A DNA stretch of 64,000 nt from Myxococcales bacterium LLY-WYZ-16_1 (GTDB lineage: Bacteria; Myxococcota; Kuafuiibacteriia; Kuafuiibacteriales; Kuafuiibacteriaceae): NCBI GenBank assembly GCA_031800475.1, contig DAPKRQ010000263.1:14547-78546 (forward strand), read 5' to 3'. The position numbers were made by a program, and so were the translations under genes. Position 1 is the first letter of the stretch. Each line of letters opens with the position of its first letter. The notes under the pieces were generated by a model that worked only from the letters and a program-made list of their open reading frames with translations, searched no databases and was not told where the DNA came from. Shown here in pieces: positions 12,736 through 45,172 of this stretch.

Positions 12736-12882
12736 TGCCCTCGTCTCGGCAGCGGTCCCCGGAACGCGGATCTGGCGCGCATCCCTGCGCAGCGGCTTCA
12801 CCTGTCGAGTGGTCGACCGTTTCTCGGTGTCGGACCGCCGGGCGGGGACCGAGCCGGGCCGGCGGACCGACCCGGGCCGAGA

Positions 12883-13347
12883 TCAGCGGCGCCGCTGCAT
12901 CCGAAGGTAGGCCAAGGCCACGGGCTCGGTGGCCCGAGGTCTCGGGCAGGCCTTCTGGGGCGGCGCGGTGCCGAGGAGGGCGGCGTAGCGGTTATCGTTC
13001 ACGAAGGCGGACCATCCGACCACGCCCTCTTGCATCGCCCGTCGAAGCTCGAAGGTGAGCTCCGCGGGCAGGGGATGGGCCTCGAGGTAGGCGAGGGCCC
13101 GATCGTCCAGATCGAATCCGGCGTCGCCGGGGGCGAAGGCTTCGACCCGGCCCAAAAACGCCCCGATGGCCCGGTCCAGCACGGGGGGCCCTTCTTCGGG
13201 CTGAACGCCCAGAGCGAAGGCCAAGACCGCCAAAAAGTCTTCGACTTCCTCCTTCGCGTACCGCGAACGCCCGTCGGGACCGGTGCGGCTCAACGCGCCC
13301 GGCAGCCAGGACCAAAAGCGACTGTCGGGGTTCATCTTCTCGTCCAA
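12883..13347 (-). CDS. Hypothetical protein (154 aa)
   Basis: Coding-like composition and codon bias. No motif recognised. Confidence 0.4.
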   Translation of the reverse strand: MDEKMNPDSRFWSWLPGALSRTGPDGRSRYAKEEVEDFLAVLAFALGVQPEEGPPVLDRAIGAFLGRVEAFAPGDAGFDLDDRALAYLEAHPLPAELTFELRRAMQEGVVGWSAFVNDNRYAALLGTAPPQKACPRPRATEPVALAYLRMQRRR

Positions 13348-23886: not shown

Positions 23887-25464
23887 ATGGCCAAGGTCTA
23901 CCAGCGCCTGCTCGATGGCGTGGAGCGCGCCGGAAACCTGCTTCCCCATCCGTTCTGGCTGTTTCTGATCCTGATCGGTGCGGTGGCGATCGTGTCGGAG
24001 CTCGCGGTTCAACTCGACTGGCAGCTTTCCCTTCCCGACGGCTCGGGAACGGCTGAAGCCCGCTCGCTGCTGCGACCGGAAGCGCTGGCGTGGTTCGTGC
24101 TTCACATGGTCGAAAACTTTGGCCACTTCGAGCCCCTGGGCCTGGTGTTGGTCATGCTGATGGGGGTGTCGATCGCCGAGGGTTCGGGGCTCATCACCAC
24201 GGTCATGCGGCGCATCGCCCTGACGGTTCCAGCTCGGGCAGTTACGCCGGTGCTCTTCGCCTTGGCCGCATGCGGAAACATCGGGTCGGACGCGGGGGTG
24301 GTGGTCGTGCCCCCTTTGGCCGCAGCCGTGTTTCGACAACTCGGACGGAACCCGATCGTGGGCCTGATGGTGGGCTATGTGGGAGCCACGGCCGGATTCA
24401 CCGCCAACCTGATCCCGGCAGGCACCGACGTGCTGGCCGTGGCCTTGACCAATGCCGCCACCAACGGGAACCCGGAGATCAACGTCCTCGCCAACTGGTA
24501 CTTCATGGTGGTTTCGGTCCTGTTCCTGGCGACCTTGGGCACCTGGGTGACCAAGACCGTCGTCGAGCCCCGCGTGCGTCGAACCACGGCCCCCCGGCCC
24601 GACGGACCGGACGGGAGCCGGCAAGGCAGTGCGGCAGGCGGGGACAGCGACTCGTCAGCTGCCCCATCGAAAGAGCCTCGCACACCCGATCCCCGCCGCG
24701 AAAGCCGGGCCCTGGCCTGGGCCCTCGGGGCCGTGGCGGTGGGTGCCGCCGTGTGGTTGTCGATGGTCCTCGTGCCGAACGGAGCGCTGCGGTCTACCGA
24801 CCCGGAGCAGTTCTGGCGCTCCCCGTTCTTCAAGGGCTTGGTGCCGATCCTGTTTTCGCTGTTTGCCCTGGGGGGCGTGGTATTCGGCCGGGTCAGCGGC
24901 ACGGTCCGGCGACCGGACGACGTCCTCGACTTCATGACCGAAGCGATGCGGAGCATGGGGGGCTATATCGTCCTCGTTCTCGCGATCAGTCAGTTCACGG
25001 AGTGCTTTCAGTATACCGGACTCGACCAACTGATCGCCGTCGGAGGTGCCGACCTGCTCCGCTCGTTGGGTATCCAAGACGTTCCGATCCCGTTTTTCGT
25101 CGCGTTCATCGTCGCGGTCGCCGTGGCCAACTTGTTCATGGGCAGCGCCTCGGCCAAGTGGGCGATCTTCGCACCGATCTTCGTGCCCATGTTCCTGCAG
25201 CTCGACTACCACCCAGCCTTCACCCAGCTGCTTTACCGGGTAGGCGACTCGATCACGAACTGCGTGAGTCCGCTCTATCCCTACTTCCCTCTGCTGCTCG
25301 GTTGGGTAGGCCGCGAATCTCCCGAACAGGCCCGGGTGGGCTCGGTGCTGGCGCTGCTCGTGCCCTACGCCTTCTTCCTGCTCCTGGGATGGACCGTCAT
25401 GCTCGTGCTCTGGTTCTTGCTGGGCCTGCCGGTCGGTCCGGACAGTCCGATCCGGATGCCCTGA
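23887..25464 (+). CDS. AbgT-family transporter (p-aminobenzoyl-glutamate/antimetabolite transporter family)
   Basis: N-terminus MAKVYQRLLDGVERAGNLLPHPF is typical of AbgT. 525 aa, polytopic and hydrophobic. Confidence 0.8.
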   Translation: MAKVYQRLLDGVERAGNLLPHPFWLFLILIGAVAIVSELAVQLDWQLSLPDGSGTAEARSLLRPEALAWFVLHMVENFGHFEPLGLVLVMLMGVSIAEGSGLITTVMRRIALTVPARAVTPVLFALAACGNIGSDAGVVVVPPLAAAVFRQLGRNPIVGLMVGYVGATAGFTANLIPAGTDVLAVALTNAATNGNPEINVLANWYFMVVSVLFLATLGTWVTKTVVEPRVRRTTAPRPDGPDGSRQGSAAGGDSDSSAAPSKEPRTPDPRRESRALAWALGAVAVGAAVWLSMVLVPNGALRSTDPEQFWRSPFFKGLVPILFSLFALGGVVFGRVSGTVRRPDDVLDFMTEAMRSMGGYIVLVLAISQFTECFQYTGLDQLIAVGGADLLRSLGIQDVPIPFFVAFIVAVAVANLFMGSASAKWAIFAPIFVPMFLQLDYHPAFTQLLYRVGDSITNCVSPLYPYFPLLLGWVGRESPEQARVGSVLALLVPYAFFLLLGWTVMLVLWFLLGLPVGPDSPIRMP

Positions 25465-25577
25465 CCGGTCGGAAGGGGGCGATTCAGGTCCCCGAACCGG
25501 GTGGAAGGGGGCGATTCGGGTCCCCGAACCGGGTGGAAGGGACGCGCGTGGAAGGGTCCGAAGCGCTCCGGGTCCCC
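25465..25577 (+). repeat. Tandem direct repeat, about 32-36 bp unit x2 plus a degenerate third copy (GGAAGGGGGCGATTCRGGTCCCCGAACCGGGT), immediately 3' of the abgT-family stop
   Basis: Seen directly. Each unit has an internal GGGGG...CCCC inverted segment. Lies in the 300-bp convergent intergenic region. Confidence 0.6.
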
Positions 25578-39793: not shown

Positions 39794-40564
39794 ATGAGAT
39801 GGCTCTTTGCTCTATCCCTGCTCGTAGCCAGCAACCTCGGTTGCTTCGAAGACCGGGGCCGTCCTGCGGGTCCCAGTTCCCAGTGGATCTGCACACCCGC
39901 CGACGACGCCGATCCTCCCGGGACTCCGGGGGACCCGGACACGCCGCCGTCGGTCCCGGATGATCCGAGCTGTCCCGCGCCGAGCTGTCCGTCCGGCCTG
40001 GACGCCATGTACGTGTCGGGAGACCCGATGGCATGCGCGGCCATCGAGTTCGACTGCCCCGAGGGTGAAGTGCGGTTCGACGCACCGTGCGGATGCGGCT
40101 GCCGCCCCGAGGCGCCATCCGGCGGAGACTCGGGCTCCACCGGCCTATGTCCGGAGCCGGGAGAGAACGGAGCCTTCTATTTGGGCGAAGGCGGCAAGGT
40201 CTGCGAGACGATCGACTTCACCTGTCCCGACGGCCAAGAGCGATTCGACGGCCCGTGCGGATGCGGTTGCTGGAACGGCTGCCCGGATCCGGAAGACCCC
40301 CGGGTCCACTATCTCTCGGAAGACCCGGAAATCTGCGAGCTCGTCGAGTTCACGTGCCCGGCCGACTGCGTGGCGTTCGACGACGGCTGTGGGTGCGGTT
40401 GCATCGAGCCCGAGGCCGGAGCCGCATGCCCCGATCCCGACGATCCGACCGTGTTGTACGTGAGCACGTCGACCACCGTGTGCAGCCGGGTGAACCTGAA
40501 TTGCCCGGGCGACAGCTTCGACGACGCCTGCGGCTGCGGCTGCCTGGACGACCCGGGCAACTGA
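39794..40564 (+). CDS. Cysteine-rich lipoprotein with four tandem ~45-aa repeats, each ending FDxxCGCGC (about 31 Cys in 256 aa)
   Basis: Lipobox SNLGC. Four copies of CP(D/E)P...Y(V/L)S...C..(I/V)(E/D)F(D/T)CP......FD..CGCGC, read directly from the translation. Confidence 0.6.
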   Translation: MRWLFALSLLVASNLGCFEDRGRPAGPSSQWICTPADDADPPGTPGDPDTPPSVPDDPSCPAPSCPSGLDAMYVSGDPMACAAIEFDCPEGEVRFDAPCGCGCRPEAPSGGDSGSTGLCPEPGENGAFYLGEGGKVCETIDFTCPDGQERFDGPCGCGCWNGCPDPEDPRVHYLSEDPEICELVEFTCPADCVAFDDGCGCGCIEPEAGAACPDPDDPTVLYVSTSTTVCSRVNLNCPGDSFDDACGCGCLDDPGN

Positions 40565-40614: not shown

Positions 40615-41139
40615 CTACGGTCTCGGGCTGGCGCCCCCGCACACCGCGCCGGTGTCCTGGTCGGCCACGGAGTCGTTGTAGGCGTTCAGCGCGTCTTGGA
40701 ACCGCGCTTCGCTCCGGCGGGTGGCGCCGGCCGACACGAGTGCCGGGATCAGGGAGGTTCCGGCCAACACCAAACCCGCGATGCCTTCGCCTTGAATCTC
40801 GTCCTCCAGGGGCCCCGGCTCGTCCTGCAGGTCGACCGCCACCAAAATCACGGCCGCCGTCGACATGGCGAGGGACGTCATCGAAAACCAGAATGCCTGC
40901 TGGCGGGCCCCCTGCGCCCGCTGGGCATAGCCGCGGGCCTCGGTGTCTGCCGGAAAGATGCCGTCCAGACCCGAGAACATGCTCTCGTCGAGGGCGTACC
41001 GCTCACCGCACCGGCTGACGGTGCGCCGCAATCCCTCATGCTCCACTCGAGCGAATCGAGGCTGTTGCGGAACGTACTCGGTCGTGGCGCAACCGACCAG
41101 GGCGGTCAGCGCCGCGACCGAAGCCAACCTGCGTGTCAT
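40615..41139 (-). CDS. Hypothetical lipoprotein with one internal TM segment
   Basis: Signal plus lipobox LVGC. Hydrophobic helix AVILVAVDL. Confidence 0.45.
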   Translation of the reverse strand: MTRRLASVAALTALVGCATTEYVPQQPRFARVEHEGLRRTVSRCGERYALDESMFSGLDGIFPADTEARGYAQRAQGARQQAFWFSMTSLAMSTAAVILVAVDLQDEPGPLEDEIQGEGIAGLVLAGTSLIPALVSAGATRRSEARFQDALNAYNDSVADQDTGAVCGGASPRP

Positions 41140-41219: not shown

Positions 41220-42128
41220 TCAGCCCAGGTCTGCGCGGGCTTTGCGCAACACCTCGGCCGAGTGTTCGAGGGCTTCCCGTTCGTCGGAGTCCAGCTCGGG
41301 TTCGAGCACCCGCGCAACCCCAGCGTGGGTGACCACGGACGGCAGGCTCAAGGCCACGTCGCGAAATCCCATGGCGCCCGACTGGACCCGGGTCACCGTG
41401 AGAACGCGATCTCCGCCGCGCAACGCCGCTTCGAGCAAGAATGCAGTCACGAGGCCAATGGCGTGGTTGGTCGCTCCTTTGCGGGAGATGATCTCGTAGG
41501 CGGCCCGCCGGACCTGCCCGGCGATGTCCGCTTCGAAGCTCGGATCCCATCCTGGGTACTGGCGGAGCGATACGCCCCCGATGGATGCCCGCGACCACAC
41601 GCACACCTCGGAATCGCCGTGCTCGCCCAAAACCTGAGCGTGGATCGACCGGGCGTCCAGGCCGAGTTGGGCACCGAGCACCTGGCGAAGCCGGGCCGTG
41701 TCGAGCATGGTGCCCGTGCCCACGACCCGCCACGGGTCCAGCCCGGAAGCCTCGGTCACGAGCTGGGTCATCACGTCCACCGGGTTCGTGACCACCACCA
41801 CGAGCCCACCAAATCCACGGAGCTGCCGGCCCACCGAACGGGCGATCTCGGCGTTGCCCGCCAGCAGCGACAGCCGAGACTCGTCGCCTTCGCCGCCCCG
41901 ACCGGCGGCCAACACCACGGCATCGGCGTCCTGCATGGCGTCGAGACCGCCCGCTTCCACCCGACAGGTCGGATAGAACGAAGACCCGTGGGCAAGATCC
42001 ATGGCTTCGCCCTCGGCGAGGCCTTCCTTGACGTCGTGGAGCACCAGGGTGCGTGCCACGCCCCGCTGCAGGGTGGCGATGGCCACGCTCGCTCCCACCC
42101 AACCCATACCGATGATGCCGACCTTCAT
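41220..42128 (-). CDS. ldh: L-lactate/malate dehydrogenase family (LDH-like)
   Basis: MKVGIIGMGWVGASVA Rossmann motif, VVVVTNPVD, catalytic-loop GEHGDS. ATG at 42128. Confidence 0.8.
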   Translation of the reverse strand: MKVGIIGMGWVGASVAIATLQRGVARTLVLHDVKEGLAEGEAMDLAHGSSFYPTCRVEAGGLDAMQDADAVVLAAGRGGEGDESRLSLLAGNAEIARSVGRQLRGFGGLVVVVTNPVDVMTQLVTEASGLDPWRVVGTGTMLDTARLRQVLGAQLGLDARSIHAQVLGEHGDSEVCVWSRASIGGVSLRQYPGWDPSFEADIAGQVRRAAYEIISRKGATNHAIGLVTAFLLEAALRGGDRVLTVTRVQSGAMGFRDVALSLPSVVTHAGVARVLEPELDSDEREALEHSAEVLRKARADLG

Positions 42129-42244
42129 GATGGGCGGAGGATAGGGGTCGACGGGGCGGAAAGAAAAACGTTCTCCGGGACTCGGCCGGTGGGTCGCCGC
42201 CCTCCGCCCTCGACCGGCGCAGGCCAGCCCCTGGACCGCACACC

Positions 42245-42334
42245 CCTCAGCCGCCACGACCCTCAGCCGCCACACTCCTCAGCCGCCACGACCTTCCGCC
42301 GCCACAACCGTTCGCCACAACCCTCAGCGGCCAC
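42245..42334. repeat. 16-bp tandem direct repeat, about 6 copies (plus strand CCTCAGCCGCCAC + 3-nt spacer; gene strand GTGGCGGCTGAGG)
   Basis: Seen directly. Three perfect 13-mers are at 42245, 42261 and 42277. Three degenerate copies follow. The last copy overlaps the stop codon of the metallophosphoesterase gene. The array fills most of the region upstream of ldh. Confidence 0.7.
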
Positions 42335-44420
42335 GGGCGGTCAGTTCGACGCGGTCGATCACCTCACCCCGATCGTTCACCACCTCCAGGTCCACCCGAT
42401 CTCCGTCGACCTGCACCTCACAGTAGTGGATCTGGGGCCGGTACACCCGAATGGCCGCCCGCCAGGGCACGGACTCGTCCAGGGCGTAGTAGGGAGCCCC
42501 TGCCCCCCCCGTCACCAACTGCCAAACCGGCACGTCGAAAGCCGGCCGGACCGAGGCGTCGACCAGGGTCCGGGTGTAGCTGTGCTCGTCGCCAAAGAAG
42601 GCGGCCAAGACCCGGTGCTTCACCAGCACCGACCAGAATGCATCGCGGCGGGCCAAAACCTCGGGAATGCGCCCGTCCCAGTACATGGCGTCCTTCACGT
42701 GGCCCGCCGAGGGAAAAGCGGGCTCGTGGGTGAACACGAACAGGTGGGTGGCGCCGCGCTGCCGGGCCGCAGTCAGATCGGCGTCGAGCCAAGCCAGCTG
42801 AGCGTCGGTGAGATACCCCTCCCGCACCCCTCGACCGAAGTGGGGATGGTCGGTGCGTTCGATGTGAGACCGAAAAAAGTAGTTGGTGTTGAGCACCGCC
42901 AGGTGCACCGGGCCCCGATCGAAGCTGTAGACCGATTCGCGGTAGCTCGGCGCCCCTGGCTTCGCCTCGGGTCCATTGTGTGGATTGACGAAGACCTCGG
43001 CGAACAGGCTTTCGCTGTTCACGGGCCCGGGCAAGTCGACCATGAACCCATGGGAATCTGCGGCCATCAACAGCTCGTGGTTGCCCATGGCTTCGTAGAA
43101 CGGAATGCGGCTGGCGAAGGGCTGCACCGAGCGGACGAAACCGGCCAACTCGTGCCGGTAGGCACCCGGCTCGGTGGTGTAGCCGTTGATCAAATCCCCG
43201 ACGAACACCACGAAGTCGTTGTCCCGGGCCCAGATCCACTCGCTCAGATCCCGCAGGGCCTCCCGGTTTGATCCCCGAAAATTCCGGTCCGGCGCCCCGA
43301 GCCCCGCCCGGCTGTCACTCATGACCGCGAAGCGAAACCGGTCGCTCGACGGAGGCCAGGTTCGAAACGCGCCTTCGGTGGCCACCGCCACCTCGCCCCG
43401 CCCGTCCCGCACGAGCACCAGGTACCGGTAGGCGGTGTCGGGCTCCAGGCCCCGCAACGGGACTTCGTGTCGAAGCCCCCCGGTACGGGTGTCGAAGCGA
43501 CGGACCGAACCGCCATCAGACCAAACCACGACCCGGGCCATGGTGGGCACATCGGTCTCGAACGAGACCATTGCCCGGTCGGTCATCACCCGGTCCACCA
43601 ACGGCCCCAGCCGAAACGAAGGCAGCTGAACGAACCTGGATCCCGGCCGGCAGGGCACCGGCTCGCAGCGGTAGTACACGTCCAGGTCGTCGAACCGCTC
43701 GGCTCCGACCCGCGGGTCCAAGACCCGCACCCGTACCGCCAAGATCCCGCGGCCCCCGGTCCGGGTCTTCTCCACGTCGTACTTGTCCCGGAGCAACCGG
43801 GTCAGCGGGATCCGAGCCCGCCACTTCCGGTGCGGGGTGGAGGGCGACTGCGAAGGGGTAGGCTCGATCGGAACCGCCTTTCGCAGCGTGCGCTGGGGCA
43901 AGCCGAACCCCTGCAGCCGCACACCGTAGTCGACCCGCCCTCCGGCGAGCGGTGCGTCGGTGGCGAAAGACAGCTCCACCACCCCGTCTTCCCGCAGCCT
44001 GGCCCCGGGAGCCTGCGTAAAAGCCAGGTTGTGCACCTGCACCGGCCGTCCGGGCGGCAAAGGAGGGGCGCCTGGCTCCACCCCGTCCAGGTATGATTCC
44101 ATTCGATAGACATCTCCGGAGAACGGCCGCACCAGGTCGGGTCCCGAGGAGTCGAACAGGGGCGCTGGCAGGGCCCCTTTTTCGTTCTCAGCGGCAAAGG
44201 CCTCCCGCTCCTGCCCGAGGAAGTCCCAGTCCCCGGCGGGAAGCTTTGCGGTCCACGAAGGCCCGACCGCAGCTGCGCTCCGCCCGGCCCGGGCCGCCGC
44301 GGTGTTCGTGCCTTCACCGGAATCCGCCGGCCCGCTCCCGGCCCCCCCATCGGTCGCGCAGGCCCCGGCGAACCACAGGACGGCCGCCGCCAGCGAAGCG
44401 CGAAGGCGGTGTCCCGTGCG
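42324..44420 (-). CDS. Metallophosphoesterase lipoprotein (purple-acid-phosphatase-like: FN3-like N-domain plus calcineurin-like phosphoesterase)
   Basis: Motifs FAVMSDSR, VVFVGDLINGY and GNHE(L) of calcineurin-like phosphoesterases, preceded by a PAP-type N-domain. Probable lipoprotein signal LWFAGAC near residue 235 of the long ORF. The true start is uncertain; the ORF is open to 45122. Confidence 0.7.
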   Translation of the reverse strand, partial: RTGHRLRASLAAAVLWFAGACATDGGAGSGPADSGEGTNTAAARAGRSAAAVGPSWTAKLPAGDWDFLGQEREAFAAENEKGALPAPLFDSSGPDLVRPFSGDVYRMESYLDGVEPGAPPLPPGRPVQVHNLAFTQAPGARLREDGVVELSFATDAPLAGGRVDYGVRLQGFGLPQRTLRKAVPIEPTPSQSPSTPHRKWRARIPLTRLLRDKYDVEKTRTGGRGILAVRVRVLDPRVGAERFDDLDVYYRCEPVPCRPGSRFVQLPSFRLGPLVDRVMTDRAMVSFETDVPTMARVVVWSDGGSVRRFDTRTGGLRHEVPLRGLEPDTAYRYLVLVRDGRGEVAVATEGAFRTWPPSSDRFRFAVMSDSRAGLGAPDRNFRGSNREALRDLSEWIWARDNDFVVFVGDLINGYTTEPGAYRHELAGFVRSVQPFASRIPFYEAMGNHELLMAADSHGFMVDLPGPVNSESLFAEVFVNPHNGPEAKPGAPSYRESVYSFDRGPVHLAVLNTNYFFRSHIERTDHPHFGRGVREGYLTDAQLAWLDADLTAARQRGATHLFVFTHEPAFPSAGHVKDAMYWDGRIPEVLARRDAFWSVLVKHRVLAAFFGDEHSYTRTLVDASVRPAFDVPVWQLVTGGAGAPYYALDESVPWRAAIRVYRPQIHYCEVQVDGDRVDLEVVNDRGEVIDRVELTARGR

Positions 44421-44429
44421 GCCTTCCAA

Positions 44430-44525
44430 GCCGATCGGGCCGAGCGCGCGGGCCTTCGCACCACCGGTCGAGCCGACCGGACCGAGCGCGCCGCCAGCCG
44501 AGCCGACCGGGCCGAGCGCGCTGGC
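44430..44525. repeat. About 30-bp tandem repeat x2.5-3 (GAGCCGACCGGRCCGAGCGCGC core)
   Basis: Seen directly. If translated (minus strand) it encodes ALGPVGSAGG / ALGPVGSTGG / ALGPIGLEG. It lies at or just upstream of the probable start of the metallophosphoesterase gene. Confidence 0.55.
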
Positions 44526-44611
44526 CGTCGCGCCGCCGACGAAACCGAACGCGTGGCGTCCGCCACCTCGGCTCCGGTCGAGTGGGGGGCGTTTTGAGCC
44601 GCCGCGCCCCC

Positions 44612-45172
44612 TCACGAAGCGCGCCGGCCGCAGAAGAAGCGCTGCAGCGCCTGCCGATCCACCCAAGGGCTGGTCCCCGGCGGACGGCGATCGAAGCGAA
44701 GAAGCTCGCGAAGCGGCATGGAGCCCCGTTCGGAGCCCGACGGAGCTCGCCAGAGCGGCGGCGGCGCCCGGTATCGGCCATGCTCGTCGAGCATGTGGCT
44801 TCTGTCGCTCCAAAAGCGTTCCACGAACACCGCCGAGGGAATCCATCGAAACGCTGGCTGGAATGGATGGGGCAGATTCGAGGGAAAGCTTCGCGCCAAG
44901 TACGACTCGAGGCGGATGCCAAAGAACAGCCGCGTGTCCAGGTCGTGCACCGTCCATGCCCGTTCCATTTCTTTCGGCCGAAGGCCGACCACGTGATAGT
45001 CCCAAACCAGCGGGCTCCCCGGACTTGCGGCTCGCTGCTCCGTCATGCACACGGCGCGGGCCGGGTTCGAAATGAACAGAACGACCCCGTTCGGCCGAGG
45101 CCTTCGTTCGAACATCTTCCATACGTTCTCTTCGCAGTAGAATGGTTGGTGGGAGTGAAGCGGGCCCGTCAT
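44612..45172 (-). CDS. Protein N-terminal glutamine amidohydrolase (NTAQ1 / WDYHV family) homologue
   Basis: FYCEENVWKM, VLFISNP, LVWDYHVVGL, HDLDTRLFFG, FWSDRSHMLD, YRAPPPLW. These align block-for-block with my recollection of animal NTAQ1 (CYCEENIWKL, AVFISNE, VIWDYHVVLL, YDLDTVLPFP, FASDRSHMKD, WREPPPPYP). The ATG overlaps the upstream stop (ATGA). Confidence 0.8.
   Translation of the reverse strand: MTGPLHSHQPFYCEENVWKMFERRPRPNGVVLFISNPARAVCMTEQRAASPGSPLVWDYHVVGLRPKEMERAWTVHDLDTRLFFGIRLESYLARSFPSNLPHPFQPAFRWIPSAVFVERFWSDRSHMLDEHGRYRAPPPLWRAPSGSERGSMPLRELLRFDRRPPGTSPWVDRQALQRFFCGRRAS

Follow-up and report, generated by a model that had tools for sequence, protein, structure and literature searches.

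Bacterial VNTRs (MLVA loci) are built of head-to-tail, intergenic units of ~10-100 bp between conserved flanks, and close strains vary at such loci in copy number and in unit variants through the gain or loss of whole units. MIRU units measure ~46-101 bp; they are dispersed at dozens of loci, are inserted at start codons and carry an ORF that is coupled to the downstream gene. The contingency SSRs of Haemophilus and Neisseria are slippage-prone repeats beside genes that give heritable, reversible length variation; their units are of 1-7 nt, lie in the ORF or between the -35 and -10 elements, and switch expression on or off by their length. Plasmid and phage iterons are tandem direct repeats of ~17-22 bp, and eukaryotic minisatellites of the Jeffreys type show a G-rich strand asymmetry, units of ~10-20 bp, hypervariable length, unit variants and higher-order blocks. 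The nearest named analogue of the locus described here is the MIRU-VNTR, MIRUs being intergenic tandem units that lie between co-directional genes and touch the reading frames of their neighbours (PMC12548453).

The array analysed here lies in a 64 kb stretch of DNA, hereafter the window, that encodes a metallophosphoesterase (MPE) identical to NCBI HJL42789.1 of Myxococcales bacterium LLY-WYZ-16_1. The MAG LLY-WYZ-16_1 has been assigned to Ca. Kuafubacteriaceae, a group of Myxococcota with photosynthesis gene clusters (PMC10576062). On the - strand, at 42226-42334, the GTGGCGGCTGAGGnnn array comprises six units and one degenerate unit between two co-directional genes, both likewise on the - strand. 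Upstream is the MPE gene (42324-44429), coding for 701 aa from a TTG at 44429 with a Metallophos Pfam domain (calcineurin-like phosphoesterase); downstream, at 41220-42128, is a gene for an LDH-like 2-hydroxyacid dehydrogenase of 302 aa (ldh) with Ldh_1_N and Ldh_1_C domains, which among NCBIfam models scores highest against L-LDH TIGR01771 (296.5 bits, slightly short of the cutoff of 303.55). The end of the array is 97 bp upstream of the ldh ATG. The locus as a whole holds QueC, an FHA protein, Nt_Gln_amidase, MPE, LDH and unknown lipoproteins. The + strand ORF at 39794-40564 encodes a 256-aa predicted secreted protein or lipoprotein that has no Pfam match and is made up of about five copies of a cysteine-rich module, C-P-x..-F-D-x-x-C-G-C-G-C.

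TRF gave two periods, one of 16 bp at 42244-42335 (5.9 copies, score 98) and a higher-order one of 32 bp at 42239-42334 (score 115). The 13-mer GTGGCGGCTGAGG was found on the - strand with no mismatch at 42245-42257, 42261-42273 and 42277-42289, at a spacing of exactly 16 bp, and in imperfect copies at 42293-42305 (2 mismatches) and 42322-42334 (1 mismatch); its count in the window was matched by 0/100 dinucleotide-preserving shuffles. Unit 1, GTGGCCGCTGAGGGTT (42319-42334), which was placed from the sequence, the ORF end and a 13-mer match with one mismatch, overlaps the last three MPE codons and the TGA stop at 42324-42326, the 3' end of the gene within it reading CGT GGC CGC TGA (R G R *). 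The - strand thus runs GAA CTG ACC GCC CGT GGC CGC TGA, then GGGTT, and then into unit 2. Units 2-6 (42242-42318), delimited by TRF, sequence, 13-mer matches and unit-by-unit parsing, are the 13-nt GTGGCGAACGGTT (42306-42318), the decayed GTGGCGGCGGAAGGTC (42290-42305) and three units that hold the perfect 13-mer, GTGGCGGCTGAGGAGT (42274-42289), GTGGCGGCTGAGGGTC (42258-42273) and GTGGCGGCTGAGGGGT (42242-42257); after a perfect 13-mer the spacer is AGT, GTC or GGT. The terminal unit 7, GTGCGGTCCAGGGGCT (42226-42241), is degenerate, and could be recognised as a unit from the comparison with sister strains because these read GTGGCGGCCCCGGGGCT or GTGGCGGCCCAAGGGCT at that position.

An earlier, sequence-only reading had described a 16-bp tandem repeat at this place, with three perfect 13-mers at 16-bp spacing plus decayed copies and with one unit coding for the C-terminus of the upstream protein. 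Its coordinates and description are borne out by TRF, the 13-mer matches, the mismatch scan and the shuffles, and the coding unit is unit 1 with its R G R *. The six copies that it counted are indeed present; the seventh, degenerate unit toward ldh had gone uncounted. It had also held that the array is not CRISPR, and we agree: CRISPR arrays have repeats of ~24-48 bp with unique spacers, whereas the units here are contiguous, without spacers, and only 3 variable nt stand between the 13-mers.

To compare alleles, we used near-identical MPEs of ENA, JGI, Logan and NCBI assemblies, which form a single cluster at 90% identity, together with relatives at <=68% identity. With two fixed sequences as anchors, GARCTGACCG within the MPE tail and CTGCGCCGGT ahead of ldh, we measured array length. 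The copy numbers given below come from assemblies of short metagenomic reads and may be minimum values. Across assemblies of the window's species cluster the flanks are 96-99.5% identical, and among them there are at least five distinct alleles (window; L001; L005/L096; L002-L004; L006-L009). The window allele has an anchor distance of 125 bp (6-7 units) and that of L006-L009, identical in sequence in four independent samples, one of 111 bp (~6 units), so that ~6 units make up the array both of the window and of four further samples, their unit sequences being different. The L002 allele, from a short-read metagenome assembly, measures 428 bp and has ~27 units (TRF: period 16, 20.6 copies, score 349). 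At least 14 units over >238 bp are present in L005, whose last five units before the contig end are all GTGGCGGCTGAGGAGT, and the first nine units of the L005 allele are repeated in L096 before the contig ends. L001 encodes the window's exact LDH and its contig starts inside the array, the last spacer being AGT as against GGT in the window.

It can be seen that these differences arise between strains that are otherwise very close. L002 and L006 are 99.1% identical in MPE and 99.5% identical in ldh, yet their arrays measure 428 and 111 bp; likewise, the MPEs of the window and L005 are 99.4% identical, yet the arrays have 6-7 and at least 14 units. Two sublineages that differ by ~4% in MPE and by 2.5% in ldh can be told apart, and there is an array in both. 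Unit-by-unit parsing indicated that alleles differ by whole units and blocks, and gave unit lengths of 13, 14, 15, 16, 18 and 20 nt. Within the L002 array, a stretch of 46 nt recurs without mismatch 249 bp away and a block of 120 nt recurs with 88% identity at an offset of 194 bp, duplications that we read as hallmarks of unequal exchange. All three marks of a VNTR or minisatellite were therefore found, namely units in tandem, a copy number that is polymorphic between conserved flanks, and alleles in unit register. The slipped-strand VNTR that the sequence-only reading had listed among its options is strongly supported, as both copy number and unit sequence vary at 96-99.5% flank identity, and the comparison of copy number across strains that it had proposed gave ~6 to ~27 units among near-identical strains.

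Set beside MIRUs, the array likewise has a polymorphic copy number and touches a neighbouring frame; however, it is known from one locus, it overlaps the upstream stop, it lies 97 bp from the downstream start and it has no coupling ORF. Compared with MLVA VNTRs it differs in its host, an uncultured Myxococcota, in its short, 16-bp, G-skewed unit and in a first unit that is a gene's stop-bearing tail, and a range of ~6 to ~27 units at ~99% flank identity is large. Unlike the SSRs of Haemophilus and Neisseria, its units are of 16 nt and follow a stop codon, lie upstream of the probable promoter and carry in-register stops, giving no switch of frame or spacing; unit 1 is the only one that overlaps an ORF, and it holds the stop, and the array is 97 bp from the ATG. 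Iterons are set apart by the absence here of a rep gene, an AT-rich unwinding element and fixed spacing, and by a chromosomal location, an unconstrained copy number and the absence of the array from relatives. Jeffreys-type minisatellites offer an analogy in the traits listed above, although the host here is bacterial and has no meiotic recombination, so that a mechanistic parallel is one that we only infer. The array is mildly unusual in its stop-bearing seed, the concerted rewriting of the tail, the large copy range at ~99% identity and its strong G-skew.

Three relatives (L010, L012 and L014; 59-68% MPE identity) retain the upstream order QueC - FHA - Nt_Gln_amidase - MPE. Beyond MPE, a repeat-free stretch of 22-108 bp leads to different genes, and ldh is missing. 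None of the three has the array, which thus lies at a break in synteny and is restricted to the window's species cluster. The ORF that follows the LDH gene (174 aa; 40615-41139, - strand) is, like that gene, absent downstream of MPE in the three relatives. Among 185,579 species genomes, LDH has no homologue above 66% identity, and its closest ones are scattered over Acidobacteriota, Myxococcota and Burkholderiales; ldh, at the breakpoint, may be a gene that this lineage gained or moved.

The MPE end itself offers a clue to the origin of the array. Homologues of MPE end at a conserved ..(E)LT or ..LAE and then have short, unrelated tails, and the last four MPE residues (ARGR or GRGD) are therefore a non-conserved tail. 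The tail of the closest outgroup gene (P0002, the MPE of L010), ACCGCCCGCAGC (ACC GCC CGC AGC CCG GGT TGA), aligns with the window's ACCGCCCGTGGC (ACC GCC CGT GGC CGC TGA), from which it follows that unit 1 is, in its 5' part, ancestral coding sequence. Judging from this one outgroup, seeding of the array from the MPE 3' end is the simplest history. The other sublineage has the tail GGT CGT GGC GAC TGA, and in L002 the tail, GGTCGTGGCGACTGAG, is the TRF consensus of the array; the MPE tail is ARGR* in one sublineage and GRGD* in the other, and the consensus unit is GGCTGAGG in one and GACTGAGG in the other. Gene tail and array consensus have changed together, which points to concerted evolution.

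Every full unit holds a TGA in the same register relative to GTGGC, and for this reason unit gain or loss cannot remove the stop or shift the MPE frame. Exchange of units can yield R-G-R*, R-G-D* or R-G-G* at the MPE end. The sequence-only reading had suggested that slippage changes the C-terminus of the upstream protein; this holds in so far as the last 1-4 residues vary with the unit in first position (ARGR or GRGD), and no frame shift is involved. The GRGD* end (L002 3491-3505; L006 5278-5292) places an RGD tripeptide on a predicted exported phosphoesterase, which is probably a coincidence.

The array is not the only variable repeat in its neighbourhood. The heptamer microsatellite (GGAGGGC)n, on the - strand at 42197-42211, has ~2 copies by TRF in the window, 3 in L006 and ~4 in L002 (4.3 copies in the TRF run on L002). 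A second VNTR, on the - strand at 44430-44521 between the Nt_Gln_amidase stop (~44611-44613) and the MPE start (44429), is built of a 30-bp unit, GCGCGCTCGGYCCGGTCGGCTCGRCYGGYG (GCGCGCTCGGYCCGGTCGGC...), of which the window has 2 copies and a partial one, L005 has 3, and L002 and L006-L009 have ~1. MPE ORF calls that run through the 30-bp repeat give 763-aa and 773-aa 'proteins' that are one GPVGSxGGAL repeat apart (P0125 vs P0124). The 30-bp and 7-bp repeats thus vary in copy number in the same strains, within a ~2.3-2.4 kb neighbourhood of the array, and this instability favours a general mutational process over a purpose-built control element for ldh.

Two further tandem repeats are found elsewhere in the window. 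The strongest in the window, at 25464-25541 on the + strand, has a 32-bp unit (2.4 copies, 93% matches, TRF score 135) and starts exactly at the TGA of the ORF 23887-25464; its units each hold a GGGGGC...GTCCCC hairpin, and the RNA fold z is only -0.40. The other, at 12837-12879, is an intergenic repeat of ~18 bp (2.5 copies, score 63) that ends 4 nt from the stop of the - strand ORF 12883-13347. It is the third repeat of the window to abut a stop codon, a recurrence that may simply reflect short intergenic regions.

Taking these observations together, we consider the array to be, probably, an essentially neutral VNTR: a hypervariable minisatellite, young and specific to this lineage, and most probably without a sequence-specific function. 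Most likely, it would have been seeded when the final ~16 bp of the MPE gene, with the stop codon, were duplicated in tandem. Replication slippage and unequal recombination between units would then have expanded, contracted and homogenised it. Since unit 1 belongs to the coding sequence, the last 1-4, non-conserved residues of MPE would be rewritten by conversion-like exchange with the array, and MPE would always terminate within the first unit, whatever the copy number. What remains for the array would be the part of a variable-length spacer, of ~110-430 bp, between the MPE stop and the conserved promoter-proximal region of ldh. Neutrality is beyond proof by sequence alone, and the array, being present in both sublineages (~96% nucleotide identity), has persisted for some time.

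The 68 bp directly upstream of ldh (42129-42196, - strand) are identical in the window, L001, L002 and L006-L009. Their only AT-rich tract is TTTTTCTTTCC at 42158-42168, and TATCCT is found at 42138-42143, 9 nt before the ldh ATG; this segment is the probable ldh promoter, followed by a very short leader. A sigma-70 consensus scan of the MPE-ldh region gave 0 matches, and inspection by eye upstream of ldh gave no match to a sigma-54 -24/-12 element. The array lies ~60-75 bp upstream of the inferred promoter and so cannot change -35/-10 spacing, which speaks against the earlier proposal that it alters the spacing of the ldh promoter, the AT-rich tract being the only promoter-like one. We also noted that GGGCGGAGG of the heptamer repeat is exactly complementary to CCTCCGCCC at 42132-42140, 3 nt before the ldh ATG. 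The ldh gene is without a Shine-Dalgarno sequence and has an anti-SD-like CCUCC in its place, which suggests either a leaderless or very short-leader ldh mRNA or a sequestering helix in read-through transcripts.

An alternative to neutrality arises from base composition. The sense strand of the array is strongly G-skewed, with 51 G against 15 C in 93 nt, and this could have transcriptional consequences. The array could be a copy-number-dependent modulator of read-through from MPE into ldh, a contingency-type locus in which R-loops, two-tetrad G-quadruplexes or RNA length would act so that longer arrays cut MPE-to-ldh transcription. The two genes are co-directional, 0 intrinsic terminator-like sites were found between them, and the sense RNA, G-rich and C-poor, is the opposite of a Rho rut site; the lack of an intrinsic terminator and an RNA unlike a rut site together make read-through plausible. 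A highly variable copy number would also fit, as would the array and heptamer repeat forming the 90-nt stretch with the highest |G4Hunter| score of the 64 kb window (~0.9-1.0, top 0.1%), with 5 G2-type motifs in 145 nt where ~0.9 are expected. However, there is no canonical G3 quadruplex motif in the array region, which has only two-tetrad patterns and a borderline G4Hunter score, and a G-quadruplex proper was rejected as a candidate on these grounds. The invariant segment upstream of ldh, with its only AT-rich tract, suggests that ldh has a promoter of its own, relatives do without the array, and the variation of two unrelated repeats nearby points to a general mutational process. We therefore regard such a modulator as unlikely. 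If it were real, ldh levels would differ heritably between strains. The same idea can be put in a more specific form, in which a stop-codon-anchored, G-rich minisatellite serves as a tunable intercistronic insulator that sets read-through into a laterally placed ldh; this we advance as a long shot.

The reading of the array as an iteron-like set of sites, or an upstream activating array, that binds a regulator of ldh fares slightly worse. Direct repeats with a conserved GTGGCG...CTGAGG core do lie upstream of ldh, and both sublineages have an array, but unit lengths of 13-20 nt destroy helical phasing and a copy number of ~6 to ~27 is unconstrained. The consensus differs by sublineage and is matched in the coding tail, as fits concerted evolution and not selection on a motif. 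Outside the array, the 64 kb window holds 7 motif matches at <=2 mismatches where 4.8 are expected; the locus neighbours include no adjacent regulator or initiator gene, and the array is missing from L010, L012 and L014. Neither a constant spacing with a conserved site nor an associated regulator gene with conservation in relatives was found. An iteron-like array had been one proposal of the sequence-only reading, and the variable unit length and copy number, the absence from three relatives and the lack of motif enrichment make it decidedly improbable. RNA structure, also proposed there, did not hold up either: the 217-nt intergenic RNA has an MFE of -103.4 against a shuffle mean of -108.9 (z +1.19), i.e. 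it folds worse than shuffles, the fold z-score of the array DNA is +0.67, and an Rfam scan at E up to 1 gave no match. Stable fold, Rfam match and terminator site were thus all absent.

Could the array be an inserted member of some REP/BIME-like or MIRU-like family of dispersed or mobile repeats? The ORFs of MIRUs couple to flanking genes (PMC12548453) and the array likewise abuts a stop codon, as do two more tandem repeats of the window (25464-25541 and 12837-12879). Those repeats are, however, unrelated to it in sequence. Elsewhere in the 64 kb window the 13-mer at <=1 mismatch has one match, at chance level; among 96 fetched loci it is confined to this locus; and the unit is not palindromic (fold z +1.19 and +0.67). 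The locus shows neither the stable hairpin of a REP palindrome nor the coupled ORF of a MIRU, its array ending 97 bp before the ldh ATG. A two-unit pattern had 0 matches in 185,579 species genomes, JGI metagenome contigs and IMG/VR, collections that lack the source genome, and in the JGI contigs the negative is weak, as a 38-nt ldh-flank control that is verbatim in L006, L007 and L009 also had 0 matches there. For the organism's own genome, the evidence on dispersal is that of the 64 kb window. We conclude that membership of such a family is very unlikely.

Mis-assembly of short reads, as the source of the array or of its copy-number differences, is the least credible of these explanations. 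Six contigs do start or end inside the array (L001, L003, L004, L005, L095 and L096), and the assembly k-mers are shorter than the long arrays. Breaks at tandem repeats are the usual behaviour of de Bruijn assemblers. Against an artefact, the same units appear in independent assemblies from four pipelines (NCBI MAG, ENA SPAdes/MEGAHIT, JGI and Logan), short alleles have no repeated k-mer >=21 nt, and one short allele is spanned identically in four samples. That allele, of L006, was recovered without a difference from four independent samples and assemblies, one of them a k=31 Logan contig that spans it, and is therefore real and not a collapsed assembly. Junction k-mers also differ between alleles, for example ATTGCGGCTGACGG (L006) and ATTGCGGCTGCGGG (L002), and since short and long alleles have different junctions, the short allele is not a collapsed long one.

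Other candidates were rejected more simply. Translational coupling through mini-ORFs was set aside because the 8-codon ORF that a unit's GTG opens to the TGA of the next unit is the arithmetic of a 16-nt period, and because the array ends 97 nt before the ldh start; a DGR variable repeat because only 4 codons are involved and neither a template repeat nor a reverse transcriptase was seen in the vicinity; and an integron cassette site on its anatomy.

No new regulatory system is revealed by the array. Its value is first of all practical: it provides a ready-made strain marker for uncultured, photosynthesis-gene-bearing Ca. Kuafubacteriaceae, and it explains why short-read assemblies break at this locus. 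If copy number does affect ldh expression, this would be a modestly interesting contingency locus of an unusual type, and were the array to act as an insulator, the capacity for fermentation would differ heritably among strains of this phototrophic lineage of Myxococcota. Three tandem repeats of the window adjoin stop codons, and Kuafubacteriaceae genomes might more broadly make recurrent use of such repeats. In conceptual terms, the locus would be a clean, small example of a minisatellite born from a gene's own 3' end that feeds sequence back into the coding tail, a tail that could be rewritten from ARGR to GRGD without disrupted termination because each unit brings an in-register stop of its own.
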